Positions 7,286 through 23,942 of a stretch of DNA of 36,699 nucleotides are shown here, piece after piece. Origin of the DNA: Candidatus Pacearchaeota archaeon CG10_big_fil_rev_8_21_14_0_10_30_48 (GTDB lineage: Archaea; Nanobdellota; Nanobdellia; Pacearchaeales; GW2011-AR1); the NCBI GenBank assembly GCA_002763155.1, contig PFCU01000048.1, positions 1 to 36,699 of the forward strand. The letters are read 5' to 3'. The notes below the pieces were generated by a model. The model was not told the DNA's origin, did no database searches, and saw only the letters and a program-made list of their open reading frames with translations. The position numbers and the translations under genes were made by a program. Numbering within the stretch: position 1 is the first letter of the stretch; every line of letters begins with the position of its first letter.

Positions 7286-7334
7286 TATTAACTATGATGT
7301 TTAATTTGATTTAAATAATTATAGATAATATAGA

Positions 7335-7640: not shown

Positions 7641-7641
7641 T

Positions 7642-8256: not shown

Positions 8257-8300
8257 AAATATTATTGATTAATGAGATATTTAAGTTTAACGATGGCGAT

Positions 8301-8552
8301 TTATTTTTTGTAATCTCTGAAATCAACCCAATCTAAAGTTCCATCTTGATTTTCATAACGCACTGCCCAAATTTTTCCTTTTTCAACCCCTTTAGAAGTT
8401 TGAGCTTTATAATTTCCATTCTCATCACCCCTTTGAAGAATTATTCTTATTCTTTCTTAATCAAATATATTTGTAATTGTGCTTGCTGTTTCTATATCTT
8501 TTTTATAACCTATGACTAAAATGTCCCTTGGAGGATTATCTTGTTTTTTCAT
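8301..8552 (-). pseudogene. 83-codon reading frame interrupted by one in-frame TAA (possible decayed gene)
   Basis: Hand translation gives MKKQDNPPRDILVIGYKKDIETASTITNIFD-TAA(8459-8457)-ERIRIILQRGDENGNYKAQTSKGVEKGKIWAVRYENQDGTLDWVDFRDYKK-TAA(8303-8301). The downstream part has no Met or alternative start. It lies in a 480-nt stretch with no called ORF. Confidence 0.3.
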
Positions 8553-8737
8553 ATATTTTCATTAAATTAATTGTATAAAAAGATTATTATGATAAATTAT
8601 TTGAGTTTTATTTCTGAGGAAATTTAATTTTCTGAATACATAGTTTTATATATTAACTTTTTTATTAAATTATATCAAAATTTATTAGATTAAATTGGTT
8701 AGAGGAATATTCGCTATTTCTCAAAGATTATAATAAA

Positions 8738-10222: not shown

Positions 10223-11168
10223 TATTAATTCTTTTCTTAGAGATATATTCATAAGCGTAATATGCTGCGGTGCAACCATCTGCGACACCAGTTATTAATT
10301 GTTTGAATTCTTTATCTGTTACATCTCCGGCTGCGAAAACTCCTGCTAAATTTGTTTCAGAAGTTTTATGATTAATTATTATTTCTCCTGCTTTGTTTGT
10401 TTTTACTCCAAGAGACTTTGCTAAATCACTTAAGACGATATGCCCAATTGCAACAAAAATTCCGTCAAGTTTTAATTCTTTGGAATTTTTGTAGGGTTTA
10501 TCTAAAACAATAGAGGTTACAAATTTTTCTCCTTTAACTTGAGTTAAATTTGTATTGTTGATGATTTCTATTTTTTTGTTAGATTTTACTCTTTCAAAAT
10601 TTATGGGTTCAGGGTGAATTTCTTTCCCGCGGTAAATTATGTAAACTTTTTTTGCGTGTTCTGCTAAAACTAACGCATCTTTTGCAGCTGAATCGCTTCC
10701 ACCGATAATTGCAACAATTTTATCTTTGAATAAAGGACCATCACATAAAGCACAATAGTTTACTCCTTTGTTTTCAAGTTTTTTGCTTCCCGGAATATCT
10801 AATCTTTTCCATTTAGTTCCGGTTGCAAACAAAATTGTTTTCCCATTGTAAGTTTCTTTTTCAGTTTTAACTGAGAATTCTGATTTTGATTTTTTAATTT
10901 CTTTTACAAGTTCTTCTTTTATTGTTACTTTATCATATGAGCGCGTATGCGCTTCTATTTTTTCTGCTATTTCTGTTCCGGTTAATTTTATGAATCCAGG
11001 GTAATTTTCTACAAGATTTGTCGTCGTTATAACTCCTCCGATAGGTAATTCAGATCCATGAGAATGTCCAAGAATTAAAGTTTTCAAACCTAAACGCGCG
11101 GAATACATTCCTCCTGCTAAACCCACTCCTCCAGCTCCAATAATTATTAAGTCGTATTCGTTTTTCAT
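10209..11168 (-). CDS. trxB: thioredoxin-disulfide reductase
   Basis: YDLIIIGAGGVGLAGGMYSAR (FAD GxGxxG), redox CALCDG, IIGGSDSAAKDA (NADPH site), AAGDV. Its 3' end overlaps the helicase 3' end by 14 nt (convergent). Confidence 0.9.
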   Translation of the reverse strand: MKNEYDLIIIGAGGVGLAGGMYSARLGLKTLILGHSHGSELPIGGVITTTNLVENYPGFIKLTGTEIAEKIEAHTRSYDKVTIKEELVKEIKKSKSEFSVKTEKETYNGKTILFATGTKWKRLDIPGSKKLENKGVNYCALCDGPLFKDKIVAIIGGSDSAAKDALVLAEHAKKVYIIYRGKEIHPEPINFERVKSNKKIEIINNTNLTQVKGEKFVTSIVLDKPYKNSKELKLDGIFVAIGHIVLSDLAKSLGVKTNKAGEIIINHKTSETNLAGVFAAGDVTDKEFKQLITGVADGCTAAYYAYEYISKKRININIS

Positions 11169-11820: not shown

Positions 11821-12636
11821 GTGAAAATGAAATTGTTTATAGATAGCGCCAAAATTGAAGAAATTGAAGAGGCATATTCTTGGGGAGTTATTGAGGGGGT
11901 TACTACAAATCCTAGTTTAATGAAAAAGGCAGTTTCAGGTAAAGAAAATAATTTAGAAGATTATATTAAAAGAATTTTGAAAGTCGCGGAAAAAACTCCT
12001 GTTTCTTTAGAAGTTACGACAAGTGACTATGATTCCATGGTTAAAGAAGGAAAAACATTATATAAAAAATTTCATAAATTTGGGAATGTTTATATTAAGA
12101 TTCCTGTGAACCCTGCTTTTTGTGATGATAATAGTTGCAAGAGAAATGATTTTGATGGTATACGTGCGATTAGAACTTTAACTAAAGAAAAAATTCCGAT
12201 TAATTGCACTTTAATCTTTAGCCCAGAGCAAGCTTTGCTTGCAGTAAAAGCGGGAGCTAAATTTGTCAGTCCTTTTGTTGGAAGGGAAGATGATTTTATT
12301 CGCGAGAAAGCACATATTAAATTTAAGAAAGATGATTATTTTATTGGAGTTAAATCTAAAAAGAAAAATGATGCTGGAATTTCTTCTGGAATTGATTTAA
12401 TTAAGAAATGTAAAGAGATTATTTTTAAGAATAAACTAAAATCCGAAGTTTTAGCTGCAAGCATTAGAAATCCTCAACAACTGCGAGAAGTTGCGCTTGC
12501 TGGAGCTGATATTGCTACAATTCCATTTGAGGTTTTAAAAAAATTAATTGAACATCCTAAAACAATTGAGGGTATGAAAGATTTTAAGAGAGATATTGTT
12601 TTAGAGTATCAGAAAATTAGTGGGGTAAGGAAATGA
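11821..12636 (+). CDS. tal: transaldolase (type 3B / Fsa-TalC-like) with extra insertions
   Basis: MKLFIDSAKIEEIEEAYSWGVIEGVTTNPSL, VYIKIP (Schiff-base Lys region), INCTLIFS, SPFVGR. The protein is 271 aa versus about 215-220 aa usual. The start is GTG 11821 or ATG 11827. Confidence 0.85.
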   Translation: MKMKLFIDSAKIEEIEEAYSWGVIEGVTTNPSLMKKAVSGKENNLEDYIKRILKVAEKTPVSLEVTTSDYDSMVKEGKTLYKKFHKFGNVYIKIPVNPAFCDDNSCKRNDFDGIRAIRTLTKEKIPINCTLIFSPEQALLAVKAGAKFVSPFVGREDDFIREKAHIKFKKDDYFIGVKSKKKNDAGISSGIDLIKKCKEIIFKNKLKSEVLAASIRNPQQLREVALAGADIATIPFEVLKKLIEHPKTIEGMKDFKRDIVLEYQKISGVRK

Positions 12637-13916
12637 TAAAATTTTCATTTAAAGATTCATTGATTAAGGAAAGAGAGATTAATAAGTTAGCTAAAAAACT
12701 TCGCCCTGAAATTGAAGATATGCAAGAAGCTGAATTAAAAGAATATAACGACGATAGAGCTTCGATAAACTTACCTGATGATTTAGCAAGTTTGAAAAAT
12801 GTAAAAAGAGTAATAAGCGAATGTTTGAAACTTAATCCGGATTATTTAGTGGTTGTTGGAATTGGAGGAAGTAATCTTGGAACAATAGCTATTCAAGAAG
12901 CTGTCCTCGGAAAATTTTACAATCAATTAGATTCTAAGTTAAAAATATTTTATGTTGATACAGTTGACTCAGATTCTTTTGGTGATGTTTTAAGAATTTT
13001 AGAACCTGAACTTAAGAAAGGTAAAAAAGTAATTGTTAATGGGATTAGTAAATCGGGTAAAACAACTGAAACGATTGCAAATTTTGAAATTCTTGTTAAT
13101 TTGATTAGGAAATATGATAAGAATTATGAAAAATATATTGTGGTGACGACGGATAAATTTTCTCCGTTTTGGGATTTGGCTTTGGATAAAGCGTTTAATG
13201 TTTTGGAAATTCCTAGAAAAATTGGAGGACGTTATAGTGTTTTCTCTCCTGTTGGACTTTTTCCTTTAGGAATGTTAGGAATTAATTTAGAAAGATTATT
13301 AAGAGGAGCTAGAGAAATGAAAAAGATTTGTTTGAATGAAAATATTATGAAAAACCCTGCTGCAATGTCTGCTGCAATTGAATATGCAAATTATCACGAT
13401 GGTAAACACATTAGTAATTTATTTTTATTCTCAAGTGATCTAGAATCAATTGGAAAGTGGAATCGTCAACTTTTTGGGGAGTCTTTGGGTAAAAAAAATA
13501 AAGGGATTACGCCGATAACATCTATTGGAACTACAGACCTTCATTCAATGCTTCAACTTTATTTAGGCGGAAAAAATGATAAATTTACAACTTTTGTTTC
13601 TGTGAAAAAAGGAAATACTAAACTCGCTATGCCTAAATTGTCTGAATATGATTTACTTGTCGATGATATTCAAGGGAAAGAATTGGCTGATATTATGGAT
13701 ACGATTCTTCTTGGAGTAAAAGCTTCATATAAGATAAATAAAAGACCATTTATTTCAATTGAAATTCCAAATAAGAAAGCTTTTACAATTGGAGTTTTTC
13801 TACAATATAAAATGATGCAAACAATGTATCTTGGATTTCTTTTAGGAGTTAATTCATTTAATCAACCAGATGTTGAAAAATATAAAGAAGAAACGCGGAG
13901 GATTTTGAGGAGATGA
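12633..13916 (+). CDS. pgi: glucose-6-phosphate isomerase (short bacterial/archaeal PGI type)
   Basis: VVVGIGGSNLG, GISKSGKTTET, IGGRYSVFSPVGL, GTTDLHSMLQLYLGG. ATGA overlap with tal. Confidence 0.9.
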   Translation: MIKFSFKDSLIKEREINKLAKKLRPEIEDMQEAELKEYNDDRASINLPDDLASLKNVKRVISECLKLNPDYLVVVGIGGSNLGTIAIQEAVLGKFYNQLDSKLKIFYVDTVDSDSFGDVLRILEPELKKGKKVIVNGISKSGKTTETIANFEILVNLIRKYDKNYEKYIVVTTDKFSPFWDLALDKAFNVLEIPRKIGGRYSVFSPVGLFPLGMLGINLERLLRGAREMKKICLNENIMKNPAAMSAAIEYANYHDGKHISNLFLFSSDLESIGKWNRQLFGESLGKKNKGITPITSIGTTDLHSMLQLYLGGKNDKFTTFVSVKKGNTKLAMPKLSEYDLLVDDIQGKELADIMDTILLGVKASYKINKRPFISIEIPNKKAFTIGVFLQYKMMQTMYLGFLLGVNSFNQPDVEKYKEETRRILRR

Positions 13917-14980
13917 AACCAAGACTACTTATTGAGCCTAAAGATGTTAAACCAAGTTTTCCAGAGTGGAAAGTTATTAGCACGATAAATCCGGCAGTTA
14001 TTCGTCGTGATGATGGGAAAATTTTGATGTATGTTCGAGTTGCAGAACAAGATAAAAAACATTTGAAGGGGGAGGTTTGTCCTGTGATAACTTCTTATGA
14101 TGGTCTTACAGTTAGTACTGAAAAAGTTTTTGTACATCAATTGAAGAGGAGAAAGAAAGAAATTATTTTTTTGAAAGATGGAACTTGTAGACTGATGCAT
14201 ATCTCTCATTTGCGTAAGGTTTTATTGGATGAATCTGGAATGAATGTTTTAGAGATTGATGATGAACCGACATTTACAGGAATTGCTGGTGAGAGTGATT
14301 ATGGGGTTGAAGATCCGCGGTTTACAAAAATAGGGAAAAAATATTATATGACTTATGTTGGAGTCTCAAAGAATGAAGGAGTTTCGACTTATTTAGCTGA
14401 ATCAGATGATTTGGAAAATTGGAAACGGTTGGGAATTATTTTTAGAGAACAAAATAAAGATGCTTTTCTTTTTCCTGAAAAAATTGATGGGGAATATGTT
14501 GCGTTTAATCGACCTGAGAGTTCATTTCATTTTTCAAAGCCTGGAATTTGGATTTCTTATTCTAAGGATTTAATTTATTGGGGAAGAGATTTGAATATTG
14601 CTCGTCCTCGAGAGGGTTCGACTTGGGAGAATGAGCGAATTGGAGGAGGTGCGCCTCCGATTAAGACTAAAAAAGGTTGGTTGTGTATTTATCACGGCGT
14701 TAAATATATTGATGGTAAACAGACTTACAGTGCTGGCGCGATGCTATTGAATTTGAAACACCCTAAAAGAATTATTGCGCGTTCTTCTCCGAAAAAACCA
14801 TTGTTTGGTCCTAGTGAAAAATTTGAGAAAAAAGGTTATATTAATCAAGTTGTTTTTCCGACAGCCGTGGTTCCGACTTTAGATGGAAAAAGTTTATTAA
14901 TTTATTCTGGAGGAGCTGATAGGGTTGTTTCTGTAAGAAAAATTAAACTTAAAGAAATATTTAATCACTTGAAAGTATGA
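13913..14980 (+). CDS. glycoside hydrolase family 130 protein (beta-mannoside phosphorylase/hydrolase family)
   Basis: NPAVIR, YGVEDPRFTKIGKKYYMTYVG, NKDAFLFPEKIDGEYVAFNRP, WENERIGGGAPPIKTKKGWLCIYHGV, YSAGAMLLNLKHPKR. ATGA overlap with pgi. Confidence 0.85.
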   Translation: MKPRLLIEPKDVKPSFPEWKVISTINPAVIRRDDGKILMYVRVAEQDKKHLKGEVCPVITSYDGLTVSTEKVFVHQLKRRKKEIIFLKDGTCRLMHISHLRKVLLDESGMNVLEIDDEPTFTGIAGESDYGVEDPRFTKIGKKYYMTYVGVSKNEGVSTYLAESDDLENWKRLGIIFREQNKDAFLFPEKIDGEYVAFNRPESSFHFSKPGIWISYSKDLIYWGRDLNIARPREGSTWENERIGGGAPPIKTKKGWLCIYHGVKYIDGKQTYSAGAMLLNLKHPKRIIARSSPKKPLFGPSEKFEKKGYINQVVFPTAVVPTLDGKSLLIYSGGADRVVSVRKIKLKEIFNHLKV

Positions 14981-15711
14981 GTGTTGAAGAACAATTTACA
15001 TTTCTTGAAGTTACTAAAGCAGAAGAAGTAGCAAAGTTGGCTGCTAAAATAGTAGCGAATAATATTAAAGAAAATCCAAAAATTGTTCTCGGATTAGCGA
15101 CTGGAAATACTATGATTTCATTTTATAGAGAATTGGTAAAATATTATAAAAAGGGATTTATTTCTTTTTCGAGGGTTAAAACATTTAATTTAGATGAGTA
15201 TTATGGGTTGGATTCTAAATCGAAAACTAGTTTTAGAAATTTTATGAATAAAAATTTATTTGATAAAGTTGATATTAAAGAAAAAAATATTAATTTTTTA
15301 GATGGGGATGTTAAAAATTTTGAAAAAGAATGTAAACGATATGAAAATAAAATAAAAGAAGTAGGTGGGATTAATTTGCAAATTTTAGGTATAGGAGTTA
15401 ATGGACATATTGGTTTTAATGAGCCAGGCTCTTCTTTTACAAGTGTTACAAGAAAGGTGAAATTATCTCAATCTACGCAAAAAGTAAATGCTAAGGAATT
15501 TAGGGGAAAGGAAATTCCTAAATATGCTTTGACGATGGGGATTAAAACAATTCTTAGTGCAAATAAAACAATTCTTTTAGCAATTGGCGGGGAAAAAGCG
15601 AGAATTATTAAAAAAACTCTCGAAGGAAAAATAACAAAAAAGGTTCCAGCAAGTGTTTTAAGAAAACATAAAAATATTTTAATAATAATTGATTGCAAAG
15701 CAGGCGAGTAA
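14977..15711 (+). CDS. nagB: glucosamine-6-phosphate deaminase
   Basis: VLGLATGNTM, FNLDEYYGL, ILGIGVNGHIGFNEPGS, ALTMGI. ATGA overlap with the GH130 gene. Confidence 0.85.
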   Translation: MSVEEQFTFLEVTKAEEVAKLAAKIVANNIKENPKIVLGLATGNTMISFYRELVKYYKKGFISFSRVKTFNLDEYYGLDSKSKTSFRNFMNKNLFDKVDIKEKNINFLDGDVKNFEKECKRYENKIKEVGGINLQILGIGVNGHIGFNEPGSSFTSVTRKVKLSQSTQKVNAKEFRGKEIPKYALTMGIKTILSANKTILLAIGGEKARIIKKTLEGKITKKVPASVLRKHKNILIIIDCKAGE

Positions 15712-15742
15712 TATTTATAACTTCTATTTATTAATTATTTAA

Positions 15743-16336
15743 ATGAAGAAAGCATTAGTAATTGTTGCACATCCGGACGATGAAACTATTTGGATGGGGG
15801 GCAGTATTTTAAGGAATAAAAATTATGATTGGACGATTTTTTCTTTATGTCGTAAAAGTGATGATGACCGAAGACCCAAATTTGAAAAAGTTTGCAAAGA
15901 ATTAAACGCTAAATTTTTGATGGGAGATTTGGATGATGAAGAATTGAATGATTTAAAAATTGATTATGTTGAAGAATTTATTATTTCTTATTTAAAAAAT
16001 AAAAATTATGATGTGATTTATACCCATGGAGAGAATGGAGAGTATGGGCATAAAAGACATAAAGAGACCCATAATGCAGTTGTTTCTCTTGTGAATAAAA
16101 ATATTTTAAAAACTAGGGAATTAATTTGCTTTTCTTACATTAATAGTAATGAATATGTTCTGGGGTTTGATTTGAAAATTGCAATTCCTAATGAAAACTC
16201 TGAAACGATAATTAATTTAAACCAAGATGAACACAAGAAAAAAATGGAAATTGTTTCAAATATTTATGGATTTGATGAAAACAGTTTTGAAGTTTTATGT
16301 TGTAATAAACAGGAAGCATTTGAAAAAATAAAATGA
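15743..16336 (+). CDS. PIG-L / LmbE family N-acetylglucosaminyl deacetylase
   Basis: ALVIVAHPDDETIWMGG and YTHGENGEYGHKRHKETH (zinc-binding His/Asp pattern of the PIG-L family). Confidence 0.8.
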   Translation: MKKALVIVAHPDDETIWMGGSILRNKNYDWTIFSLCRKSDDDRRPKFEKVCKELNAKFLMGDLDDEELNDLKIDYVEEFIISYLKNKNYDVIYTHGENGEYGHKRHKETHNAVVSLVNKNILKTRELICFSYINSNEYVLGFDLKIAIPNENSETIINLNQDEHKKKMEIVSNIYGFDENSFEVLCCNKQEAFEKIK

Positions 16337-17508
16337 TAGAAGAATTAAAGAACAAACCGCTTAAAATTTTAGTTTTATATCCTCATCCTCCGGAACCGGA
16401 CGGAGTTAGCATGCAAGGGCATTATTTAATTAAGGGTTTGAGAGAGCTTGGAGCAGAGGTTATGCCTTGTGATAGAGCTGATAATTTACAAAAATTGCAT
16501 TCCTATAAGGCGTTTAATCCAGATGTTACAATTGGAATTGGGTATTGGGGAGATTCGCCAGAAGTTCTTTTTAGTCCTATGAATCATGGATTGAAAACAG
16601 TTCCTTGGTTTAATGCAGACGGTTGGGTTGCAAATTATCATGATATCTTGAATAATTTACCATTAATTGTTGCAACAAGTAATTGGGTGAAATCAACTTA
16701 TATGCGAGACGGTGTAAAAGGAGATAATATTTATGTTTGTCCTATTGGTTTTGATTCAGAAACTTTTTATCCAATTTCTAAATCAGATGAAAAAATAAAA
16801 AAATTGCGCGATTTACTTGGAATTAAAGATGATGAAAAAATGATTTTTACAGCGGGTGGAGATGTGACAAGTAAAGGAGCTCAGGAAATGTTTAAGGCTT
16901 TGGCAAAGATCGATAAAGATTTTCCGAATTGGAAATATGTGCTAAAAACTTATGATAGTTCTTCTGCTGAAAATCATGGTGTTGAAGAAGAACAGTTAAT
17001 TGAAGAGTTAGGATTAGATAAGAATAAGATTATTCGGCTTTCTGGTAAATACACTCCAGAATTTATGGCGATGTTGCTTAATGCTTGTGATATTTATGCT
17101 GCGCCTTCACGTCTTGAAGGTTTTGGAATGATTCAGCTTGAAGCGCAGGCTTGCGGGAAACCGGTTATATCAATAAATGTTGGCGGACCGAAAGATGTTA
17201 TTATCCACGAGAAAACAGGATTTTTAGTTGATGTTGCAACTGAAATTAAATTAGATGGCGAGTGGGCATATGATTGGATGGGCTTTGAAGAGAAGCATAT
17301 GATTAATTTTCCGAATCCAAAAACTTTTGCTTATAGGGCAGACATAAATCAACTTGCTGAGTATACTTTAAAATTATTAGTAGATGATTCTCTTAGAGAG
17401 TCTATAGGTCGAGAAGCAACAAAGCACGCTTTAGATAATTTTCATTATAAGGTAACTGCTAAAAAGATGTTGGATTTGATTAAGGGGAATGTTTTGAAAT
17501 TACAATAA
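16333..17508 (+). CDS. glycosyltransferase family 4 (GT-B, retaining)
   Basis: C-terminal EGFGMIQLEAQACGKPVIS...GGPKDVIIHEKTGFLV (E-x7-E type GT4 signature). ATGA overlap with the PIG-L gene. Confidence 0.8.
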   Translation: MIEELKNKPLKILVLYPHPPEPDGVSMQGHYLIKGLRELGAEVMPCDRADNLQKLHSYKAFNPDVTIGIGYWGDSPEVLFSPMNHGLKTVPWFNADGWVANYHDILNNLPLIVATSNWVKSTYMRDGVKGDNIYVCPIGFDSETFYPISKSDEKIKKLRDLLGIKDDEKMIFTAGGDVTSKGAQEMFKALAKIDKDFPNWKYVLKTYDSSSAENHGVEEEQLIEELGLDKNKIIRLSGKYTPEFMAMLLNACDIYAAPSRLEGFGMIQLEAQACGKPVISINVGGPKDVIIHEKTGFLVDVATEIKLDGEWAYDWMGFEEKHMINFPNPKTFAYRADINQLAEYTLKLLVDDSLRESIGREATKHALDNFHYKVTAKKMLDLIKGNVLKLQ

Positions 17509-18597
17509 AACCTTTTTTTCCTTCAAAGATTCATAAGCTAAAATATACATTCCTGCATTCCAGCCTTGTCCTCCGCCACCGCTAGGTTCTCCTGTATGGC
17601 CATTAAGCCATTCGCTGAACATTGGTTTTTTAAGATTTGCTTCTGCAATTTTTTCTAATGCTTTTTCAGCTTCTTTGAATTTCTTTTGTTTTATTAGAGC
17701 TAAAACATAAAATCCTCCGATATATGTCCAAATTCCTGCATTTGAATAGTGATAAGGAGTTGCACCAGCATCATAAAAATAATCATGCCAATCTTTTCCT
17801 TTAGGTTTAATTGCAGGATATAATGTTTTGATTGGATAAGGTTGATCGATTTTATTCTTTTTAATATAGGATAATATTTTTTCAGATTGTTTTTTATCTG
17901 CTAAATCAAAAACTATTGTCATTAAATTACCTAAAGATTCAAACCAATCTCCAATCTCTTTATATTTATTATGGTTTTTCCATCTCCACGAAACATAATA
18001 ATTTCCATTCCAGAGACCGTCATCCTTACTTTTATTTACAACTTCTTTTATTTTTTTTGCTTCTTTTGTTTTTCCTAATAATATTAAAGATTTATAATAA
18101 AGAGCCTCTGTGTTTATTGTATGTCCGTAACGATGAGGAAAAGCATCAAACCAATCAGAAGTTGGTTGTTGTTCTGGCATTAAATCTTCGCCAGTATCTT
18201 GATATGAAATCCACAATTGTGCCTTTTCAATTTGTTTCTTGTATTTTTTTAATAAAGAATTATCTTTGTATCTTTTAGCATAAATGTAATTCCCAATAAT
18301 AAACCACAAAGAGGAATCAATTGATTTGTAATCTACATGGTGTTTTCTTTTAGAAAACTTATCTACTGCATTTGGTATTTGTCCTAAATGACTCTGGTTT
18401 TTTGCTAAAGTTATTATTGATTGTTTGAAAGTGTTTTGGAATTTTTTATCAATAAGACTTGCTCCTAACGAAATAATCATAGAGTCTCTCGCCCAAACAG
18501 CGTCGTAACCAGGATATGCTGCGAAAAACCCATGTTTAGTAGATGTTCTTTTTAAAACTTCTATTGCTTCATCATATGCTTCTTTTGTTTTATTCAT
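17500..18597 (-). CDS. six-hairpin (alpha/alpha)6 glycoside hydrolase, GDE_C / GH100 (neutral invertase)-like
   Basis: GFFAAYPGYDAVWARDSMIISLGASL, PYHYSNAGIWTYIGGFYVLALI, GQGWNAGMY follow the amylo-alpha-1,6-glucosidase / alkaline-neutral invertase pattern. The exact family cannot be assigned by eye. Confidence 0.6.
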   Translation of the reverse strand: MNKTKEAYDEAIEVLKRTSTKHGFFAAYPGYDAVWARDSMIISLGASLIDKKFQNTFKQSIITLAKNQSHLGQIPNAVDKFSKRKHHVDYKSIDSSLWFIIGNYIYAKRYKDNSLLKKYKKQIEKAQLWISYQDTGEDLMPEQQPTSDWFDAFPHRYGHTINTEALYYKSLILLGKTKEAKKIKEVVNKSKDDGLWNGNYYVSWRWKNHNKYKEIGDWFESLGNLMTIVFDLADKKQSEKILSYIKKNKIDQPYPIKTLYPAIKPKGKDWHDYFYDAGATPYHYSNAGIWTYIGGFYVLALIKQKKFKEAEKALEKIAEANLKKPMFSEWLNGHTGEPSGGGGQGWNAGMYILAYESLKEKKVLL

Positions 18598-18602
18598 TTT
18601 AA

Positions 18603-20810
18603 TTAGAGAATTTCATCAACAGTTAGTCTTGCAGTTAAATATGAAAGTGTTGATTCAGCTCCTTGATTTAAATTAATACTGTATTTTCCTAAACCATCAT
18701 GACAGCCACCGGTTTGTTCATTGTAAACAACTTGGTTTAAGGTATTTTTTCCTAAAAACCATTGGAAAGCTGAAAGCATGTGATTTTCATAATTAAGGTC
18801 TTTAGTTATTTTAAATGCAAGAGTTAAAGTTTGTACCATTGAAGCTGCATCTAAAGGTTGTTGATCAAAATAAGTTCTTTTTCCATTTTTTTTATACCAA
18901 CCTGCTTGACCAATTGGAACAAAAATATTATCTTTAAAAGTCACAGATACTAAAAAATCTAAAGTAATTTTTGAAACATCTAAATAATATTTATCTTGAG
19001 TTGCGATATATGCATAAAGTAATGCTTCTGGAATTTTGCTATTTGAATAAGTTAGCTTGTCTTCGAACCACTTCCAATCTTCAGTTTTATTCTTTTCAAA
19101 TAAACTAGTTAATTTATTAGCATATTCTTTAATTATATTTAAAGTTTCATCTGAATAATTCTCTTTATTATAATTATATAATCCAGTTATTGTTAAGGCA
19201 ATTGCTCTTGGAGTTGTGAAATTTTTTGTAATATTAAGTGATTTTAATAATAAATGTCTTGCATTTTCTTTTAATCTTTTAGGTAAGGATTGTATTGAAC
19301 TTAAATATCCTAAAGCATTTATTGCTCGTCCATGAGCTTCTTCACTAAAATATTCTTTGTTAATAGTTTTATCTTTTAAAACAATATTATGAAATTTGCC
19401 TTCGGAATCTTGCACATATTGAATATATTTAAGATAGGTTTCAATTAATTTTAGTGAATTTATACTTCTTGATTTTTTGTATAGTCTTGTTGCAACAATT
19501 AATGCTCTTGCATTATCATCGAGAGTGTAACCTGAATTAAGATCTGGCGTTGTATACTTTGCAAATTGAATCATGCCAAAATCATCTGTTAATCTTCTAA
19601 AATGACTTGTATTAATCCTTGGTAATTGTTCAAAACATATTTCTGGCATTTGGATATATTTTTTTATTGTTTCTCCATAAGAAATTGTCACATTTGGCCA
19701 AGTCATTTGTCTTGTATATGCATATGCGTTTTGTTCTATTTCTTCCATTTTATTTTTATCTGCAAGGGTTTCTAAAATAGCTTTTTCAAAAGATTTTGAA
19801 TTTTTGAATTTATCAATTAATATCCCTCTATCTGCTTTTAGTAAATCTTGGGCATGTAAAAATGGTGTTGAGATGCAAGTTCTTCCACATCCAAGAGCGT
19901 AAGCAAGTGTTCCAGAAGTTATTTGTTCAGGAGTTAGGGTCGGAGAAATGTAAATATCTGTAGCTTTAAGAAATCCGACGATTTCTTTTAGAGTTGTGTA
20001 TTTATTATAAAATTTGACATTATCTTCCAAATGTAGTTCTTTAATTTTTTCTCCGAGCATATTCCTATACTTCTCGCCTTCTCTTCTTCTTATGATTGGA
20101 TGAGTTGCTCCGATAATTATGTAAATTAAATTTGGATATTTTTTAACAACCTTTGGTAAAGAGCGTATAACATATTCATAACCCTTTCCTGAAGAAATCA
20201 TTCCAAATGAAGATAAAATTATTTTATCTTGTAAACCGAAATGTTTTTTTAATCTTTTTTGAGATTCAAAACCAGTTGTAGGAATTCCGTGTTGTATAAT
20301 TCTTATAGGGGTTGTTATCTTATATTTATTTTCTAAAATTTCAACTCCTTTTTGAGTCATTACAATTATTTCATCAACATTTGTAGCGATATCTTTAATG
20401 ATTTGTCTTCTTTTTTCATCGGGTTTGGGTAAAATGCTATGGAAAGTTATAGTTTTTGGTTTTTTTAATATTTTAAGAAATTTTATTATATATTCTCCAT
20501 ATTCCCCTCCAAAAATCCCAAATTCATGTTGTATAGAAACCATTTTTATTGATTTATTCTGATTTATTTTTTCGGCGATTTTTACATAGTCTGATAAAGA
20601 AGTATCACTTAATTGGTAAATAACTTTTTTAGGATAATTATAAATGTTGAGTCCATTATTATTCATGGCTAGAATTTTTGTTTTTGCATATGGATAAAAC
20701 TTTTTATCAATTGCATCTGTAAGGTCTTTTGTGAATGTTGCGATGCCACATTCTCTTGGAGGATATGAACCTACAAATAGGATTATATTTTCATCACTCT
20801 CTTTTTGCAT
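18603..20810 (-). CDS. fusion protein: N-terminal GT4 glycosyltransferase + C-terminal six-hairpin-like domain (735 aa)
   Basis: N-terminal part: ILFVGSYPPRECGIATFTKDL ... GTLAYALGCGRTCISTPF (GT4). C-terminal part, from about aa 400: RRLTDDFGMIQFAKYTTPDLNSGYTLDDNARALIVATRLY ... DQQPLDAASMV ... NQGAESTLSYL, a repeating helical-hairpin pattern. Confidence 0.7.
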   Translation of the reverse strand: MQKESDENIILFVGSYPPRECGIATFTKDLTDAIDKKFYPYAKTKILAMNNNGLNIYNYPKKVIYQLSDTSLSDYVKIAEKINQNKSIKMVSIQHEFGIFGGEYGEYIIKFLKILKKPKTITFHSILPKPDEKRRQIIKDIATNVDEIIVMTQKGVEILENKYKITTPIRIIQHGIPTTGFESQKRLKKHFGLQDKIILSSFGMISSGKGYEYVIRSLPKVVKKYPNLIYIIIGATHPIIRRREGEKYRNMLGEKIKELHLEDNVKFYNKYTTLKEIVGFLKATDIYISPTLTPEQITSGTLAYALGCGRTCISTPFLHAQDLLKADRGILIDKFKNSKSFEKAILETLADKNKMEEIEQNAYAYTRQMTWPNVTISYGETIKKYIQMPEICFEQLPRINTSHFRRLTDDFGMIQFAKYTTPDLNSGYTLDDNARALIVATRLYKKSRSINSLKLIETYLKYIQYVQDSEGKFHNIVLKDKTINKEYFSEEAHGRAINALGYLSSIQSLPKRLKENARHLLLKSLNITKNFTTPRAIALTITGLYNYNKENYSDETLNIIKEYANKLTSLFEKNKTEDWKWFEDKLTYSNSKIPEALLYAYIATQDKYYLDVSKITLDFLVSVTFKDNIFVPIGQAGWYKKNGKRTYFDQQPLDAASMVQTLTLAFKITKDLNYENHMLSAFQWFLGKNTLNQVVYNEQTGGCHDGLGKYSINLNQGAESTLSYLTARLTVDEIL

Positions 20811-20840
20811 GTTGTTATAGAGAGAAAGTTGTTTAAATAT

Positions 20841-21578
20841 TTAACGAAGTTTGGTTAAAAGTGAAGCTCCGATAAGTCCAACGTTGTCTCCAAGCTTTGC
20901 ACGAACTATCGGAATTTTCCTTTTGATTAAATCATTTTTGATTAAAATTTTTCTTATCTCAGAATATATTGATTTTACCGAAGATAAACCTCCTCCAATA
21001 ATAACTATTTCTGGGTCAAGAACATATGAGATATTTAGAATTGCGATTCCTAAATCTTCTCCAATTTGATTATACTTTTTTGATTTTTTGTTTGTTTGAT
21101 ATTTTTTTTCTAACATTTTATTATTTAATATCATATGGCCTGGCTCTCCTGCAAATCCATTTCCATGATATAACTTTCTATCAATCATAATTGCTCCACC
21201 AATTCCTGTGCCTAATGTTAAAAGAAGAAAATCCTTTTTATTTTTTCCATTCCCATAATATAATTCACCAAGACCTGCGCAATTTGCATCATTATCTACA
21301 TAAACTTTAGATTTGTATTTTTTAGAAATAATTTCTCTAATATCTATATTTTTTAAATCAATATTGGGGTTTCCATAAATTTTTCCATCTTTTACAAATC
21401 CGGCTGTTCCAATGCAAATGACTTTTGGTTTTGGGTAAGAATCTATTAAATCAAATAAAGAATTAATTATTTGTTTTTTTGTTTTTGGAGTTGTAATTGT
21501 TTGTTTATTTTTTACTTTTCCATCTGAAACTTCTGCAATTCTTATATTAGTTCCACCAATATCTAAACACAATACCAT
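20841..21578 (-). CDS. ROK-family sugar kinase (short form without the CxCGxxGC zinc motif)
   Basis: LCLDIGGTNIRIA, VDNDANCAGLGE, LTLGTGIGGAI, GEPGHM, IIGGGLS. The usual zinc-binding Cys cluster after GH is replaced by a Lys-rich segment. Confidence 0.75.
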   Translation of the reverse strand: MVLCLDIGGTNIRIAEVSDGKVKNKQTITTPKTKKQIINSLFDLIDSYPKPKVICIGTAGFVKDGKIYGNPNIDLKNIDIREIISKKYKSKVYVDNDANCAGLGELYYGNGKNKKDFLLLTLGTGIGGAIMIDRKLYHGNGFAGEPGHMILNNKMLEKKYQTNKKSKKYNQIGEDLGIAILNISYVLDPEIVIIGGGLSSVKSIYSEIRKILIKNDLIKRKIPIVRAKLGDNVGLIGASLLTKLR

Positions 21579-21646
21579 CTTTTATTATGATAAAGATAAG
21601 TTTTTTAGATTTAAAAAATGTTGTTTGTTGATTTAAGGAGTTATTA

Positions 21647-22396
21647 TTATAATTCTTTTAGAATTTGATCCATTAATTGTCCTGCAGGTAAGACTTTGCC
21701 TTGAAGATTAACATAATAATCTCCTTTCAACCGTGTTTTATCTGCTGTTATTTTAATTTCAGAACCACTGAGTAATTCTTTGTCATTGTAGTTATCTCCT
21801 AATGCTAGAACCTGATTTTTTGATAGTTTAAGTTGTTTGATTAGATTTTTTAGACCGGTTAGTTTTGTTTGAATATTTTTTATGCCAATATCGTAAGATT
21901 CATCGTTCCAGATGCAATAAAGATTTTTTTCTTTTTTCATGAGGTTTTCAATTGAGATTACTCTCTTCGTGCAATGAATTGTTATAATAAATTCTTTGGG
22001 TTCAAATCCTTTGATATTTTTGTTTTTGATTGTTTGTAATTTTGGTAAGACTTTTTTTAGTTTTTCAAAACTGTTGACATTTTGGTAAAATTTTCCTTTA
22101 ATCCATGTTGCGCTTCCATTTTCATAGGTTAGAGAGACAAATTCTAAAATTTCTTGAAACATTTCTTGAAGCATGTACAAACTTCGGCCTGAAGTGATGT
22201 TTATTTTAAATCCTTTTTTGTTTAGTTTTTTTATTTGTTCTATAAGTTCTTCTGGAATTTTTTTTGTTTCAAGAGTTGTTGTGTTTCCAACTTGTTTAAT
22301 TTTTGTTCCTCTTGGAACTAAAACTCCATCTACGTCAAATACTAAGAGTTTGATTTTTTGGATATCTGATTTTTTTAATTCAGTTATAGGTTTCAT
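21647..22396 (-). CDS. HAD-IIB (Cof-type) sugar-phosphate phosphatase
   Basis: LLVFDVDGVLV (motif I DxD), ITSGRS (motif II), K...LGDNYNDKELL (motifs III/IV). Confidence 0.75.
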   Translation of the reverse strand: MKPITELKKSDIQKIKLLVFDVDGVLVPRGTKIKQVGNTTTLETKKIPEELIEQIKKLNKKGFKINITSGRSLYMLQEMFQEILEFVSLTYENGSATWIKGKFYQNVNSFEKLKKVLPKLQTIKNKNIKGFEPKEFIITIHCTKRVISIENLMKKEKNLYCIWNDESYDIGIKNIQTKLTGLKNLIKQLKLSKNQVLALGDNYNDKELLSGSEIKITADKTRLKGDYYVNLQGKVLPAGQLMDQILKEL

Positions 22397-22749
22397 TTTC
22401 TGTTAAAATCATCTTCTAACCGTTTAATGTCTTTTTCATTGAAATTTCCGAACGATATTTCTAGAAATCTTGATGGTTTAGATAAACCCCTTGTTCGATG
22501 TTTAATATTTTTAGGAACAAAGACACTATCTCCTTTTTTTACTAACCAAGTTTTGTTTCCGACAGTAACTTTTGCAGGGTTATCTAAGAAATGCCAGTAT
22601 TCGTTTCGATTTTTGTGAATTTGTAATGAATTTCGTTTTTTTGGATTTATTGTTAGAATTTTCACAGAAGTTTTTTCGTTGAGTGTGAATTGTTCGAACT
22701 CGCCCCATGGACGTTTGTCTACTAGATGATTTTTCAACCTCTTTTTCAT
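22393..22749 (-). CDS. stand-alone type II phosphomannose isomerase cupin domain
   Basis: RPWGEFEQF...VKILTINPKKRNSLQIHKNRNEYWHFL...VTVGNKTWLVKKGDSVFVPKNIKHR...EISFGNFNEKDIKRLEDDFNR matches the C-terminal PMI domain of ManC-type enzymes. ATGA overlap with the HAD gene. Confidence 0.7.
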   Translation of the reverse strand: MKKRLKNHLVDKRPWGEFEQFTLNEKTSVKILTINPKKRNSLQIHKNRNEYWHFLDNPAKVTVGNKTWLVKKGDSVFVPKNIKHRTRGLSKPSRFLEISFGNFNEKDIKRLEDDFNRK

Positions 22750-23555: not shown

Positions 23556-23942
23556 TTAAAAACTAAAAATTATCAAACCAACTATTCCTGCGATTAATGC
23601 TCCGAATAAGAAAGCTATAACAATTGCTTGAACTCTTGCATCATTTGATATTAAAGCAAGGGTTGATTTTAAGTTAGTTATTTGTTTTTTCTCCTTTAAT
23701 ATTTGTAAAAAGAAAATAGCTCCAAAAATTATTAACATAATTTCAATTGCCATAAAAGTTCCTTTAATAAAAGAGGCAATAGTTAAGATTAATGAAATTT
23801 TCCAGACAAAGAGAGCGATTAAGAGAGTTATAACATATGTCAAAGGCATTGCTTTAATCGCAGGCCATTTTCGTATAACTAATAGTAAAAGAAGTAATGC
23901 AAAAGGAAGTATTGCTAATAGAGTTAGTAACTGTTCTGCCAT
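23556..23942 (-). pseudogene. N-terminal remnant (128 aa) of an L-lactate permease (LctP family) gene
   Basis: LLAILPF...IRKWPAIKA...ALFVWK...KGTFMAIEIMLIIFGAIFFLQILKEKKQITNLKSTLALISNDARVQAIVIAFLFGALIAG is collinear with the first ~125 aa of LctP/LldP (...ISxDxRLQxLxIxFxFGAFLEGAAGFG). Similarity ends where EGAAGFG is expected. The ORF stops 2 nt from the fba stop, so there is no room for the remaining ~400 aa. Confidence 0.5.

Follow-up and report, generated by a model that had tools for sequence, protein, structure and literature searches.

A cluster of 11 genes in the genome of a Candidatus Pacearchaeota archaeon is a lineage-specific, extended DPANN (Pacearchaeota-type) copy of a widespread, biochemically unstudied module, whose signature gene encodes a fusion of a GT4 glycosyltransferase domain with a six-hairpin toroid. 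With moderate confidence, we propose that the module is cytoplasmic and that it builds and recycles a small glycoside or oligosaccharide of mannose and, in the version described here, glucosamine.

Organization and conservation of the cluster

The cluster lies within a window of 36,699 nucleotides, which is the whole stretch of DNA that was analysed, and forms two convergent operons that overlap by 9 nt at positions 17500-17508 (Table 1). The plus-strand operon opens with tal, and direct reading of this strand reveals 4-nt ATGA overlaps at 12633, 13913, 14977 and 16333. On the minus strand, an ATGA overlap at 22393, seen as TCAT, joins the HAD-IIB and PMI cupin genes. These genes, their family assignments and all five overlaps had been listed in a first-pass annotation, and were confirmed by our ORF, profile and overlap checks. 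Transmembrane segments and hydrophobic N-terminal leaders are absent from all 11 proteins, which from their sequences look cytoplasmic.

Table 1. Genes of the cluster, with positions in the window and supporting profile matches
Gene or product	Position	Strand	Profile match
tal (transaldolase / Fru-6-P aldolase family)	11821-12636	+	PF00923, 187.6 bits
pgi (glucose-6-phosphate isomerase)	12633-13916	+	PF00342, 81 bits; NF010697, 272 bits, below its cut-off
GH130 glycoside phosphorylase (predicted)	13913-14980	+	PF04041, 166 bits (cut-off 26)
nagB (glucosamine-6-phosphate deaminase)	14977-15711	+	TIGR00502, 284.6 bits (cut-off 236.9)
PIG-L/LmbE-family zinc deacetylase, 197 aa	15743-16336	+	PF02585, 53.9 bits
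GT4a, retaining GT-B glycosyltransferase	16333-17508	+	PF00534, 95 bits
GH100-like (alpha/alpha)6 six-hairpin glycosidase, 365 aa	17500-18597	-	PF12899, 66 bits; GDE_C, 55 bits
GT4 + six-hairpin (toroid) fusion, 735 aa	18603-20810	-	PF00534, 60.6 bits
ROK-family sugar kinase, 245 aa	20841-21578	-	PF00480, 159.5 bits
Cof-type HAD-IIB	21647-22396	-	PF08282, 67 bits; TIGR01484, above its cut-off
PMI-type cupin, 118 aa, stand-alone	22393-22749	-	PF01050, 75.9 bits

The genes for GH130, the fusion and GT4a exhibit an identical pattern of presence and absence, occurring in the same seven of 61 related genomes, and the same genes are found together in four fully read relatives and in dozens of independent loci. 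The cluster is inherited as a unit, and the earlier suggestion that it constitutes one functionally linked glycan module is supported. We also surveyed 83 loci from archaea and bacteria around the fusion gene. A GH130 gene is located no more than 10 kb away in 67 of these, and in 47 it is directly upstream on the same strand. The remaining partners are less frequent (GH100-like hydrolase, 35 loci; GT4a, 31; PIG-L, 27; PMI cupin, 15; nagB, 12; ROK kinase, 10), and the combination of GH100-like hydrolase, GT4 and PIG-L accompanies the fusion in about a third of the loci. Relatives of the fusion are present in at least 468 species, including DPANN, Asgard, CPR and other lineages.

The same annotation had described the module as hard-wired to pgi and tal. 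This is correct for the present genome, where the pgi product connects Fru-6-P with Glc-6-P, but the translational coupling of tal, pgi and GH130 is absent from relatives, which have at most tal nearby and pgi elsewhere. A pgi match was obtained in only one of the 83 other loci, and its inclusion in the cluster is a peculiarity of this genome. Some DPANN loci have tal close by, though uncoupled from the module, and the gene is context and not a conserved member.

Predicted mannoside phosphorolysis and a probable mannose-phosphate link

The single GH130 protein of the genome has Teth514_1788, Uhgb_MS, Teth514_1789 and Lin0857 as its closest solved relatives (E 3e-46 to 3e-42), whereas UhgbMP, a Man-GlcNAc enzyme, matches at E 2.5e-30. 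Its nearest characterised enzymes are the beta-1,2-mannoside phosphorylases Lin0857, Uhgb_MS and Teth514_1788 and not Man-beta-1,4-GlcNAc enzymes (161 bits to the beta-1,2 group versus 109 to UhgbMP), the type that the earlier salvage hypothesis had named. In a residue comparison against published data (PMC12814180), R42, E133, D134, K182, R200, R242 and H261 align with R47, E136, D137, K184, R202 and R242 of Uhgb_MS. The catalytic Asp is retained, as are the R and E that act as beta-1,2 determinants in Uhgb_MS, and E133, D134, K182, R200, H261 and Y272 are kept in 74 to 78 of 78 module-linked GH130 proteins. A Glu stands opposite the lid residue R88 of Uhgb_MS, and the aglycone may therefore be something other than mannose. 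An extracellular hydrolase had also been contemplated for this gene; the phosphate-binding Lys, Arg and His are all present, and no signal peptide was found. We classify the protein as a lid-bearing 'type A', GH130_4-like enzyme that, judging by these residues, is a phosphorylase, with the predicted reaction beta-mannoside + Pi <-> alpha-Man-1-P + aglycone.

The lid-less GH130 that is the usual partner of the fusion is absent here, and the sole GH130 is of the type that accompanies nagB and GT4a. Type A genes occur with nagB in eight of 13 loci and type B genes in one of 57, an association confounded by lineage in that type A and nagB are both largely confined to DPANN.

The PMI cupin aligns with the PMI portion at the C terminus of GMP_PMI (TIGR01479, 72 bits), and is of the type II mannose-6-phosphate isomerase family (Man-6-P <-> Fru-6-P). 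It adjoins a mutase or HAD gene in seven of the 15 loci that contain it. The position of HAD-IIB is occupied in eight other clusters by a classical PGM/PMM, and the two have complementary distributions: in eight genomes PMM occurs alone, and solely inside the cluster, and four have the HAD and no PMM anywhere, PF02878 being wholly absent from them. Given that genomes with the HAD lack a classical mutase, HAD-IIB probably provides the Man-1-P/Man-6-P link in place of phosphomannomutase, which explains why none had been recognized in this cluster. Either mutase activity, or hexose-phosphate phosphatase activity in concert with the kinase, could achieve this. Counting against a mutase role, its nearest solved relatives are sugar phosphatases and not eukaryotic PMM, and PF03332 gives no match. 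Two CPR loci carry an operon encoding an RfaE-II-like nucleotidyltransferase, HAD, PMI cupin, GH130 and a GH130 fusion; a third has this operon minus the PMI cupin.

The ROK kinase, which is also found in two related genomes, is short and has no zinc cysteine motif. Over its full length it can be aligned to the profile of polyphosphate-glucose phosphotransferase (99.8 bits, below the cut-off), and it is predicted to act as a hexose 6-kinase on released mannose, glucosamine or glucose.

Predicted enzymes for glucosamine and alpha-linked sugars

The gene order GH130-nagB-PIG-L-GT4 is repeated in five relatives. NagB is predicted to catalyse GlcN-6-P <-> Fru-6-P + NH3, and neither nagA nor glmS was found in the genome, whose completeness is only 86.5%. 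The PIG-L protein conserves the motifs AHPDDE and GxYGHxxH, and would be expected to de-N-acetylate a GlcNAc-glycoside. Its profile matches to solved structures are weak (MshB, 7e-4; PH0499 deacetylase, 7e-3; BshB1, 0.5), and it forms a clade of its own. Thus, the grouping with thiol-type enzymes that had been considered was not observed for the three enzyme types compared (MshB, BshB and chitobiose deacetylase).

GT4a is the partner of PIG-L, the 4-nt overlap of their genes being conserved in 13 of 27 loci, and no other protein of the cluster is as strongly conserved (71-82% identity in relatives). Its E-x7-E motif is intact (E272...E280). The top solved relatives of its profile are the two GlcNAc transferases that are partnered with PIG-L deacetylases, MshA (2.9e-18) and a BshA-type enzyme (2jjm, 3.5e-17), followed by sucrose-P synthase (5.5e-17); the margin between the first and last is small, and therefore the profile does not settle specificity. 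GT4 and PIG-L pairs produce GlcN-glycosides in GPI, mycothiol and bacillithiol synthesis.

The GH100-like gene lies directly downstream of the fusion gene in 26 loci. The model of its product (pLDDT 89.9) most closely resembles the GH100 invertases InvB and InvA (TM 0.74-0.79), followed by GH63 MgH and GDE. Residue E329 falls at the position of the InvA/InvB catalytic Glu, and D151 has the same register to the YGH motif as Asp188/189, making a catalytic pair plausible on the basis of the model. The protein is probably an inverting alpha-glycosidase acting on the alpha-linked product of a GT4 enzyme.

The fusion comprises a GT4 domain (residues 1-395) whose E-x7-E motif is degenerate and a previously unstudied (alpha/alpha)6 toroid (residues 396-735; pLDDT 95.3), whose relatives, fused and free-standing, form 3450 representative clusters. 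The best fold match of the toroid is the uncharacterised YPO2471 (7tem, TM 0.86). AGE-superfamily epimerases are also similar (TM 0.70-0.77), but their catalytic His residues are unconserved in the toroid. Invariant fusion residues are D431, D432, R435, D649, Q650, Q651, D705 and E719.

A proposed build-and-recycle cycle and its alternatives

In the proposed cycle, the fusion and GT4a would attach alpha-linked sugars during the build phase. The sugar transferred by GT4a is probably GlcNAc, and the coupled PIG-L would convert it to GlcN in the manner of the MshA/MshB and BshA/BshB pairs, and GH130 in reverse could add beta-mannose from Man-1-P. Neither donor nor acceptor can be deduced from these sequences. 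For the break phase, the genes are present and the chemistry is what we infer: GH130 would phosphorolyse the beta-mannosidic bond to give alpha-Man-1-P, HAD-IIB would return this to the Man-6-P pool, either by mutase action in one step or by way of free mannose and ROK, and the cupin would convert Man-6-P to Fru-6-P. The GH100-like glycosidase would free the alpha-linked hexosamine or hexose for phosphorylation by ROK, and NagB would turn GlcN-6-P into Fru-6-P and ammonia. NagA would be unneeded because deacetylation has already been done on the glycoside, and in this genome pgi and tal would hand Fru-6-P to central metabolism. As a counterpoint, without GlmS, NagB might run toward GlcN-6-P.

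The closest published relative of the module is a Thermoanaerobacter X-514 cluster containing GH130 genes, a GT4 gene and a gene for a hypothetical protein, which differs in having an ABC importer (PMC4264767). As a further precedent, Leishmania keeps a reserve of beta-1,2-mannan in its cytosol (PMC12814180).

The first-pass annotation had offered phosphorolytic salvage and a storage-sugar or osmolyte cycle as its two hypotheses. Salvage in its broader form, wherein the cell imports an outside or host-derived beta-mannoside bearing GlcNAc or GlcN, splits it with GH130 and the six-hairpin hydrolase, deacetylates it with PIG-L and burns the sugars through ROK, NagB, PMI and HAD, with the GT4 proteins as side activities, transglycosylases or phosphorylases, strikes us as unlikely. 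The catabolic funnel, which leads to Fru-6-P from Man-1-P via Man-6-P and from GlcN via GlcN-6-P, is complete and in one operon with pgi/tal, the missing nagA fits the proposed bypass, type A GH130 accompanies nagB (with the lineage caveat above), and Chiku et al. proposed salvage for the importer-bearing Thermoanaerobacter cluster (PMC4264767). DPANN cells are also host-dependent, and this genus lacks canonical nucleotide-sugar synthesis, making synthesis by GT4 enzymes awkward: PF00483 sugar nucleotidyltransferases are absent from the genome and from three further cluster-bearing genomes of the genus, which leaves the donor source for the two GT4 enzymes unexplained, and the one RfaE-II-like PF01467 gene of the genome is outside the cluster. 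However, the 83 loci share no conserved transporter or secreted glycosidase, a gap already noted, with no transporter family common to more than seven loci and no ABC sugar permease (BPD_transp_1) in the genome. Pure beta-mannosyl-GlcNAc salvage is further disfavoured because two glycosyltransferases are core members, these being the most conserved proteins and one of them the signature fusion, and a 1,2 link to GlcNAc, as the nearest GH130 relatives would imply, is chemically impossible.

We consider it quite improbable that the module makes a glycoconjugate for the envelope or membrane, for example an S-layer glycan or a glycolipid that carries GlcN. GT4a and PIG-L would then resemble PIG-A/PIG-L, GH130 would be a beta-1,2-mannosyltransferase, and the fusion a further transferase, with precursors provided by the kinase, isomerases and HAD. 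Beta-1,2-active GH130 enzymes do exhibit weak transferase activity with GDP-Man (PMC12814180), and the CPR operons, in which the nucleotidyltransferase precedes HAD, PMI and GH130, have the appearance of a route from Fru-6-P to NDP-mannose. The precedents for GT4 and PIG-L pairs also point this way, with the profile matches here being weak, but GT4a lacks the PIGA-specific domain in profile searches. Moreover, NagB, the GH100-like hydrolase and the phosphorylase are degradative enzymes, and no membrane protein, flippase, polyprenyl-phosphate transferase or oligosaccharyltransferase is present in the cluster or conserved alongside it.

A synthesis/turnover cycle in general is the reading we favour over salvage, and this part of the second earlier hypothesis stands. 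Its analogy with the sucrose-phosphate system (GT4, Cof phosphatase and GH100) is unsupported because the HAD accompanies the PMI cupin and GH130 and neither GT4. A strict osmolyte cycle of this kind, with GT4a forming a glycosyl-sugar-phosphate that HAD-IIB dephosphorylates and the GH100-like enzyme hydrolyses, could draw on the near-equal match of GT4a to the sucrose-P synthase Tll1590 and to MshA, on the hydrolase family and on faint SPP/S6PP matches of the HAD. We judge it very improbable, since HAD and GT4a do not co-vary (three versus 31 of the 83 loci), the CPR HAD is found beside GH130 (with the PMI cupin in two of three loci) and without GT4a, the in-situ replacement of the HAD is phosphomannomutase and not another phosphatase, and PIG-L, NagB and GH130 would be left without a role.

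Gene content, distribution and architecture of the cluster

The open reading frames and family assignments put forward in the first-pass annotation all hold. The plus strand carries tal, pgi, GH130, nagB, PIG-L and GT4 genes (the last hereafter GT4a), and the minus strand encodes a PMI-type cupin, a HAD-IIB protein (HAD), a ROK kinase, a 735-aa protein joining a GT4 domain to a six-hairpin (alpha/alpha)6 toroid (the fusion) and a 365-aa six-hairpin protein (the GH100-like protein). The five ATGA overlaps described there are real when read in the sequence, and the two operons are convergent, overlapping by 9 nt. None of the 11 cluster proteins contains a TM segment or leader peptide, and scans of the window for Rfam families and tRNA genes gave no hits. 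The source genome (G000; 0.65 Mb in 56 contigs) is 86.5% complete, and the nearest homologues of the window proteins are labelled Pacearchaeota, Woesearchaeota or Nanoarchaeota.

Coordinates and profile matches of the cluster genes and of related features (L-handles, gene neighbourhoods read around module homologues; C43, a second contig of the same genome)
Feature	Location	Profile match or description
tal	window 11821-12636(+)	
pgi	window 12633-13916(+)	
GH130	window 13913-14980(+)	PF04041, 166.2 bits against a cut-off of 26
nagB	window 14977-15711(+)	TIGR00502, 284.6 bits against a cut-off of 236.9
PIG-L	window 15743-16336(+)	PF02585, 53.9 bits against 28.2
GT4a	window 16333-17508(+)	PF00534, 95.3 bits
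GH100-like protein	window 17500-18597(-)	PF12899, 66.4 bits against 23.6, match limited to the last 136 residues
Fusion	window 18603-20810(-)	GT4 domain: PF00534, 60.6 bits
ROK kinase	window 20841-21578(-)	PF00480, 159.5 bits against 22.9; reaches no sugar-specific equivalog
HAD	window 21647-22396(-)	TIGR01484, 54.6 bits against 41.8
PMI cupin	window 22393-22749(-)	
Redox genes flanking the module	window 10209-11168(-); L018:8489-9678; L020:9356-9922 and 13826-15011	thioredoxin reductase/glutaredoxin/peroxiredoxin genes
Small methyltransferase	L020:112-690	SAM-dependent, ~190 aa, ORF cluster c11
CPR GH130 fusions	L101:9206-11137; L102:9222-11123; L103:10039-11973	633-644 aa; GH130 domain plus ~300 residues without a Pfam hit
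Separate glycan cluster	C43:540-11346 (L105 spans 7116-10493)	
Antisense ORF	window 17916-18278(+)	120 aa, TTG start
Permease-like ORF	window 23556-23942(-)	128 aa; PF02652, 81.9 bits over the first ~120 of 522 positions

Among 61 related genomes, GH130 is present in 8 and the full-length fusion and GT4a in 7 each, these being the same 7 genomes; the four relatives that were read completely also keep the cluster genes together, with rearrangements. Synteny across DPANN and CPR genomes, which the first-pass annotation recommended comparing, extends the module well beyond close relatives. Relatives of the fusion were found in at least 468 species (one genome per species scanned), among them DPANN lineages, Altiarchaeota, Asgard archaea, many Patescibacteria/CPR groups, Omnitrophota and others. 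The module proteins are 45-80% identical across the two domains, in hundreds of species, and the toroid domain is represented by 3450 representative clusters, about half of which are free-standing. The proposed hard-wiring of the module to tal and pgi did not generalize, as this coupling is peculiar to the present genome.

On the basis of neighbourhood counts obtained by clustering the ORFs of 83 fusion loci, the module has three layers: a core of GH130 and fusion, an accessory set of GH100-like protein, GT4a and PIG-L, and a funnel of small-molecule enzymes in DPANN. No transporter, flippase or nucleotidyltransferase family is common to more than 7 of the 83 loci. The window is one of the most complete versions of the module, with all steps from glycoside to Fru-6-P in ~9 kb, and thus offers a compact set for expression and assay.

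Genes in the neighbourhood of the fusion
Neighbouring gene and position	Loci (of 83)
GH130 within 10 kb	67
GH130 directly upstream, same strand	47
GH100-like gene nearby	35
GH100-like gene directly downstream	26
GT4a nearby	31
PIG-L nearby	27
PMI cupin nearby	15
nagB nearby	12
ROK nearby	10
HddA-like GHMP kinase nearby	7
Classical PMM nearby	5
HAD nearby	3

GH130 and the two six-hairpin proteins

The sequence of the window GH130 predicts a beta-1,2-type phosphorylase that acts in the cytoplasm. Among solved structures, it comes closest to the beta-1,2-mannoside phosphorylases Teth514_1788, Uhgb_MS, Teth514_1789 and Lin0857 (E 3e-46 to 3e-42). Residue roles were read from an alignment with Uhgb_MS against the published account of that enzyme (PMC12814180). 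The catalytic Asp D134 and the phosphate-binding K182, R200 and R242 correspond to D137, K184, R202 and R242 of Uhgb_MS, H261 is also kept, and R42 and E133 correspond to R47 and E136 of the +1 subsite, the pair that sets the beta-1,2 specificity of Uhgb_MS (PMC12814180). A Glu directly before the catalytic Asp marks the beta-1,2 state, whereas Man-beta-1,4-GlcNAc phosphorylases have Tyr there (PMC12814180). A long N-terminal lid restricts GH130_4 enzymes to di- and trisaccharides (PMC12814180); the window protein has a lid of ~60 residues, compared with ~48 for the GH130_4 lid loop, and its E83 aligns with lid residue R88 of Uhgb_MS. The conserved catalytic, phosphate-binding and R42-E133 residues, together with the lid, point to a beta-1,2-type phosphorylase, and the choice between phosphorylase and hydrolase posed in the first-pass annotation falls on the phosphorylase side. 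The profile of the beta-1,2-mannosidase BT3780 gave only 58.8 bits.

A Man-beta-1,4-GlcNAc phosphorylase of the UhgbMP/BT1033 type was considered and is not supported, because the protein is closer to the beta-1,2 enzymes (161 bits, versus 108.9 bits and E 2.5e-30 for UhgbMP) and has E133 rather than Tyr. Mannosylglucose phosphorylases are more distant (E ~1e-16). The protein reaches no NCBIfam equivalog cut-off, those of the GH130_4 beta-1,2-mannobiose phosphorylase type included (235 versus 550 bits and 193 versus 450 bits), and the aglycone may be a moiety other than mannose. Lin0857 from Listeria innocua and Uhgb_MS from a human gut metagenome both have a lid region and align with the window GH130 over its full length (E about 4e-46 to 3e-42). 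However, the window enzyme differs in its context, being co-transcribed with nagB, PIG-L and GT4.

The Glu-Asp pair is kept in all 78 module-linked GH130s, and the phosphate-binding residues in nearly all. These proteins fall into a lid-less type (63 copies), which abuts the fusion in 49 cases, and a lid-bearing type (15 copies), which does so in one and instead adjoins GT4a, nagB or the GH100-like gene. The present genome has the lid-bearing type only, and the operon GH130-nagB-PIG-L-GT4a is recurrent in DPANN, such that this GH130 may be linked to the hexosamine part. However, given that lid-bearing GH130s and nagB are both largely confined to DPANN, their association is confounded by lineage. 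Three CPR loci additionally encode long GH130 fusions that directly follow a normal GH130 in an operon of nucleotidyltransferase, HAD, PMI cupin and GH130.

The two six-hairpin domains are not paralogues, as BLASTP found no similarity between them (E 0.67) and their folds point to different clans. The model of the GH100-like protein (pLDDT 89.9) is nearest to GH100 invertases (TM 0.74-0.79), followed by a GH63 mannosylglycerate hydrolase and a debranching-enzyme glucosidase. The catalytic Glu of InvA/InvB is matched by E329, and D151 is placed opposite Asp188/189 by the register of the YGH motif, without significant alignment. This modelled fold and these two residues suggest that the protein is probably an active inverting alpha-glycosidase. 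Its C-terminal 150 aa align with the GH100 alkaline/neutral invertases InvA, InvB and AtCINV1 (E 1e-16); however, it is ~100 aa shorter than these enzymes and 17-21% identical to them, and Arg430 of InvB is not conserved. Genes for sucrose synthesis are absent, which all but excludes sucrose as the substrate. An ORF antisense within this gene is most likely spurious.

The fusion's toroid (model pLDDT 95.3) has its closest fold match in YPO2471, a solved protein of unknown function (TM 0.86), followed by AGE-superfamily epimerases (TM 0.70-0.77). In Bacteroides/Ruminococcus mannan catabolism, a cellobiose 2-epimerase is paired with a GH130 mannosylglucose phosphorylase. The module likewise combines an AGE-fold (alpha/alpha)6 protein with a GH130, and cellobiose 2-epimerases/AGE are the best characterised folds for the toroid after YPO2471. 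However, the module toroid is fused to a GT4 domain. A role as the epimerase partner of GH130 was rejected because the toroid does not conserve the AGE catalytic His pair. Asp, Gln, Glu and Arg make up its invariant polar residues, which include the Asp-Asp pair D431/D432, the Asp-Gln-Gln at 649-651, D705 and E719, and its sole invariant His (H8) lies at the domain N-terminus. In the GT4 domain of the same protein, the E-x7-E motif is replaced at residues about 290-305 by a conserved (E/N)-Q-I-T-S-G-T-L-x-Y, and the residue that normally touches the nucleotide ribose, the second Glu, is missing across 47 homologues.

The GT4a/PIG-L pair and the mannose phosphate step

No protein of the cluster is more strongly conserved than GT4a (71-82% identity in relatives), which has a canonical E-x7-E (E272 and E280). 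Its profile finds MshA and a BshA-type enzyme as top structures, with sucrose-P synthase close behind. MshA and BshA are GlcNAc transferases paired with PIG-L deacetylases, and the module resembles the MshA/MshB and BshA/BshB systems in that its GT4 and PIG-L genes are adjacent and translationally coupled, the 4-nt overlap being kept in 13 of 27 loci. It differs in that its PIG-L belongs to a short 197-aa clade and that there is no cysteine ligase and no link to inositol phosphate or malate. The metal and catalytic motifs of PIG-L enzymes (AHPDD and HxxH) are retained: AHPDDE is found in the window PIG-L and in the family consensus, and all of 28 homologues have H95, H103 and H106. The concern that this protein might group with thiol-type deacetylases was not borne out: it belongs to none of the MshB, BshB and diacetylchitobiose deacetylase subfamilies (22.7 bits for MshB against a cut-off of 224; 15.9 for BshB2 against 195), and its similarity in a profile search of the PDB is marginal (MshB 7e-4, PH0499 7e-3, BshB1 0.5). 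The simplest reading is that GT4a would transfer GlcNAc and PIG-L would then de-N-acetylate the product.

A role for GT4 and PIG-L in making a low-molecular-weight thiol was suggested by neighbouring redox genes and was dropped, because such genes flank the module in just 3 of 84 loci and a Cys ligase is lacking. The three loci are from DPANN, and flanking this infrequent is probably a lineage-level feature of the neighbourhood. In 6 loci, a small methyltransferase gene lies between GH130 and GT4a or beside the fusion, and the glycoside may be methylated in some lineages.

The phosphomannomutase reported missing by the first-pass annotation is indeed absent, with no PGM/PMM domain found genome-wide; the genome also yielded no PF00483 nucleotidyltransferase, glmS, nagA, eukaryote-type PMM or ABC sugar permease. 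In three congeners, a classical PGM/PMM (best match the PMM/PGM equivalog, 433 bits; archaeal GlmM, 367 bits) forms part of the cluster and takes the very position, with the PMI cupin on one side and ROK or the fusion on the other, that HAD has in the window. The same arrangement occurs in five further loci, and the cluster copy is the sole mutase copy in those eight genomes. Conversely, the four genomes with a close HAD orthologue (that of the window, G032, which equals G064, G062 and the CPR genome G061) have no classical mutase. HAD orthologues in CPR share 64-70% identity with that of the window. Three CPR loci were read, and in two of them the operon runs RfaE-II-like nucleotidyltransferase, HAD, PMI cupin, GH130, GH130 fusion; the third has this operon minus the cupin. 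This replacement in situ, the complementary distribution and the CPR context suggest that HAD probably links Man-1-P to the Man-6-P pool, with gene context as the sole ground for a PMM-like role. The swap predicts a new enzyme activity, and this prediction can be put to the test directly.

Judged by sequence, HAD is a Cof-type sugar phosphatase and no known mutase: its profile finds the Cof-type sugar phosphatases GK1056, YbiV, YidA, BT4131 and PfHAD1. For the HAD motifs DxD, S/T-G-R, K and GDxxND, residues D21, D23, S69-G70-R71, K178, D201 and D205 are invariant in 35 homologues. A eukaryote-type PMM, considered because of a motif likeness to PMM2, is not supported by profile searches: PF03332 has no match in the genome at E <= 1, and no PMM appears among the HAD profile matches at E <= 10. 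We consider it about equally likely that HAD is a true mutase or that it is a Man-1-P (or Man-6-P) phosphatase working with the ROK kinase. In other loci, the kinase partner of such a phosphatase would be an HddA-like anomeric kinase.

Five loci (L049, L070, L088, L089 and L100) carry a small GHMP kinase (~280 aa, ORF cluster c10) beside ROK, GH130 or the fusion. These loci have neither PMM nor HAD, and the best match of the kinase is the D-glycero-D-manno-heptose-7-phosphate kinase HddA (124 bits); it is possibly an anomeric mannose(-6-P) kinase. The nucleotide-heptose pathway comprises the GmhA isomerase, HddA/HldE kinase, GmhB HAD phosphatase and HldE/HddC nucleotidyltransferase, and module variants carry the PMI cupin, HddA-like GHMP kinase, HAD and RfaE-II-like nucleotidyltransferase. 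By analogy, this likeness suggests a kinase/phosphatase route between Man-6-P and Man-1-P. However, the module GHMP kinase and HAD alternate between loci rather than acting as partners, and all scores are below equivalog cut-offs.

A proposed cycle, its alternatives and known systems

The gene content amounts to two complete degradative branches to Fru-6-P plus two conserved glycosyltransferases. In the mannose branch, GH130, HAD and PMI would act in turn, with ROK serving for free mannose. In the glucosamine branch, PIG-L would act on the glycoside, followed by the GH100-like hydrolase, ROK and NagB, such that NagA would not be needed. Given these branches, the two glycosyltransferases and the absence of uptake or export machinery, the best fit, which we hold with moderate confidence, is an internal cycle in which the glycoside is built and recycled.

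Salvage of host sugars would account for the degradative branches, and the funnel to Fru-6-P foreseen for phosphorolytic salvage in the first-pass annotation stands. Its substrate, a beta-mannosyl-GlcNAc or -GlcN, does not, since the GH130 is nearest to beta-1,2 enzymes and not to Man-GlcNAc phosphorylase; salvage finds no uptake machinery here, and we consider it unlikely. Envelope glycoconjugate synthesis would employ the two glycosyltransferases but sits poorly with degradative enzymes such as NagB, and seems slightly less likely again. The second earlier proposal, synthesis and turnover of a storage sugar or osmolyte, survives in its general form, but its pairing of HAD with GT4 in the manner of sucrose-P metabolism does not: the exchange of phosphomannomutase and HAD in the same slot, together with the CPR context, argues against it. 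A strict sucrose-P-like osmolyte cycle is therefore highly improbable.

Donor supply for the internal cycle is constrained, as the genus is without canonical nucleotide-sugar synthesis and the genome has one RfaE-II-like gene elsewhere. A module operating wholly without nucleotide sugars was considered, and is weakened by this PF01467 gene near GT9-like and GT2 genes on contig C43. The separate glycan cluster there encodes two GT2-like proteins, a methyltransferase, a GT4, an NAD-epimerase and large membrane proteins, in addition to the 154-aa RfaE-domain-II-like nucleotidyltransferase (the only PF01467 gene of the genome) and a GT9-like heptosyltransferase-type protein. It suggests that this genome, which has no PF00483 enzymes, may use an ADP-sugar route.

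The sole published description of such a neighbourhood is that of Teth514_1785-1796 in Thermoanaerobacter sp. X-514, which includes two GH130s, a Man-1-P guanylyltransferase, a GT4 'alpha-mannosyltransferase', a hypothetical protein, a GH5 and an ABC importer (Chiku et al. 2014, PMC4264767). As in the module, cytoplasmic beta-1,2-mannoside GH130s lie beside a GT4 and a hypothetical protein and are tied to Man-1-P metabolism; unlike the window, that cluster has the importer, GH5 and guanylyltransferase, and its two GH130_6 enzymes are lid-less or short-lidded (PMC4264767). It has no PIG-L, second GT4, GH100-like enzyme, NagB, ROK, PMI cupin or HAD. Literature searches on GH130 in DPANN/Pacearchaeota, on mannosylglucosylglycerate with GH130 and on YPO2471 returned nothing useful. 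Thus, the window is a rich variant of a widespread module that is partly published as a gene list and biochemically uncharacterised.

The mannogen of Leishmania is a cytosolic beta-1,2-mannoside reserve that is built and phosphorolysed by GT108 dual transferase/phosphorylases and buffers central carbon metabolism (PMC12814180; PMC4264767). This cycle is the best functional analogy for the module, its GT108 enzymes being GH130-related five-bladed propellers; however, it relies on GT108 and is without a GT4-toroid protein, PIG-L or hexosamine branch. Mannan is not known from DPANN or CPR organisms. A bolder and rather doubtful proposal is that DPANN, CPR and some Asgard organisms hold a mannogen-like cytoplasmic reserve or solute, a short beta-1,2-mannoside with alpha-glucosamine. 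It would be turned over largely via sugar-1-phosphates instead of canonical nucleotide sugars, by a new GT4-toroid enzyme, a new PIG-L clade, a GH100-like glucosaminidase and a Cof-type HAD in the phosphomannomutase role. Biosynthesis is almost lacking in episymbiotic DPANN and CPR organisms, and a module kept in hundreds of their species must therefore serve a central role, such as carbon storage, stress protection or host-sugar handling. Four of its proteins, the GT4-toroid fusion, the PIG-L clade, the short GH100-like enzyme and HAD, have no characterised close relative.

Beyond the minus-strand operon, the permease-like ORF between genes for a DeoC-family aldolase and tpiA matches the start of the L-lactate permease profile, and looks like a gene remnant or a shortened permease.
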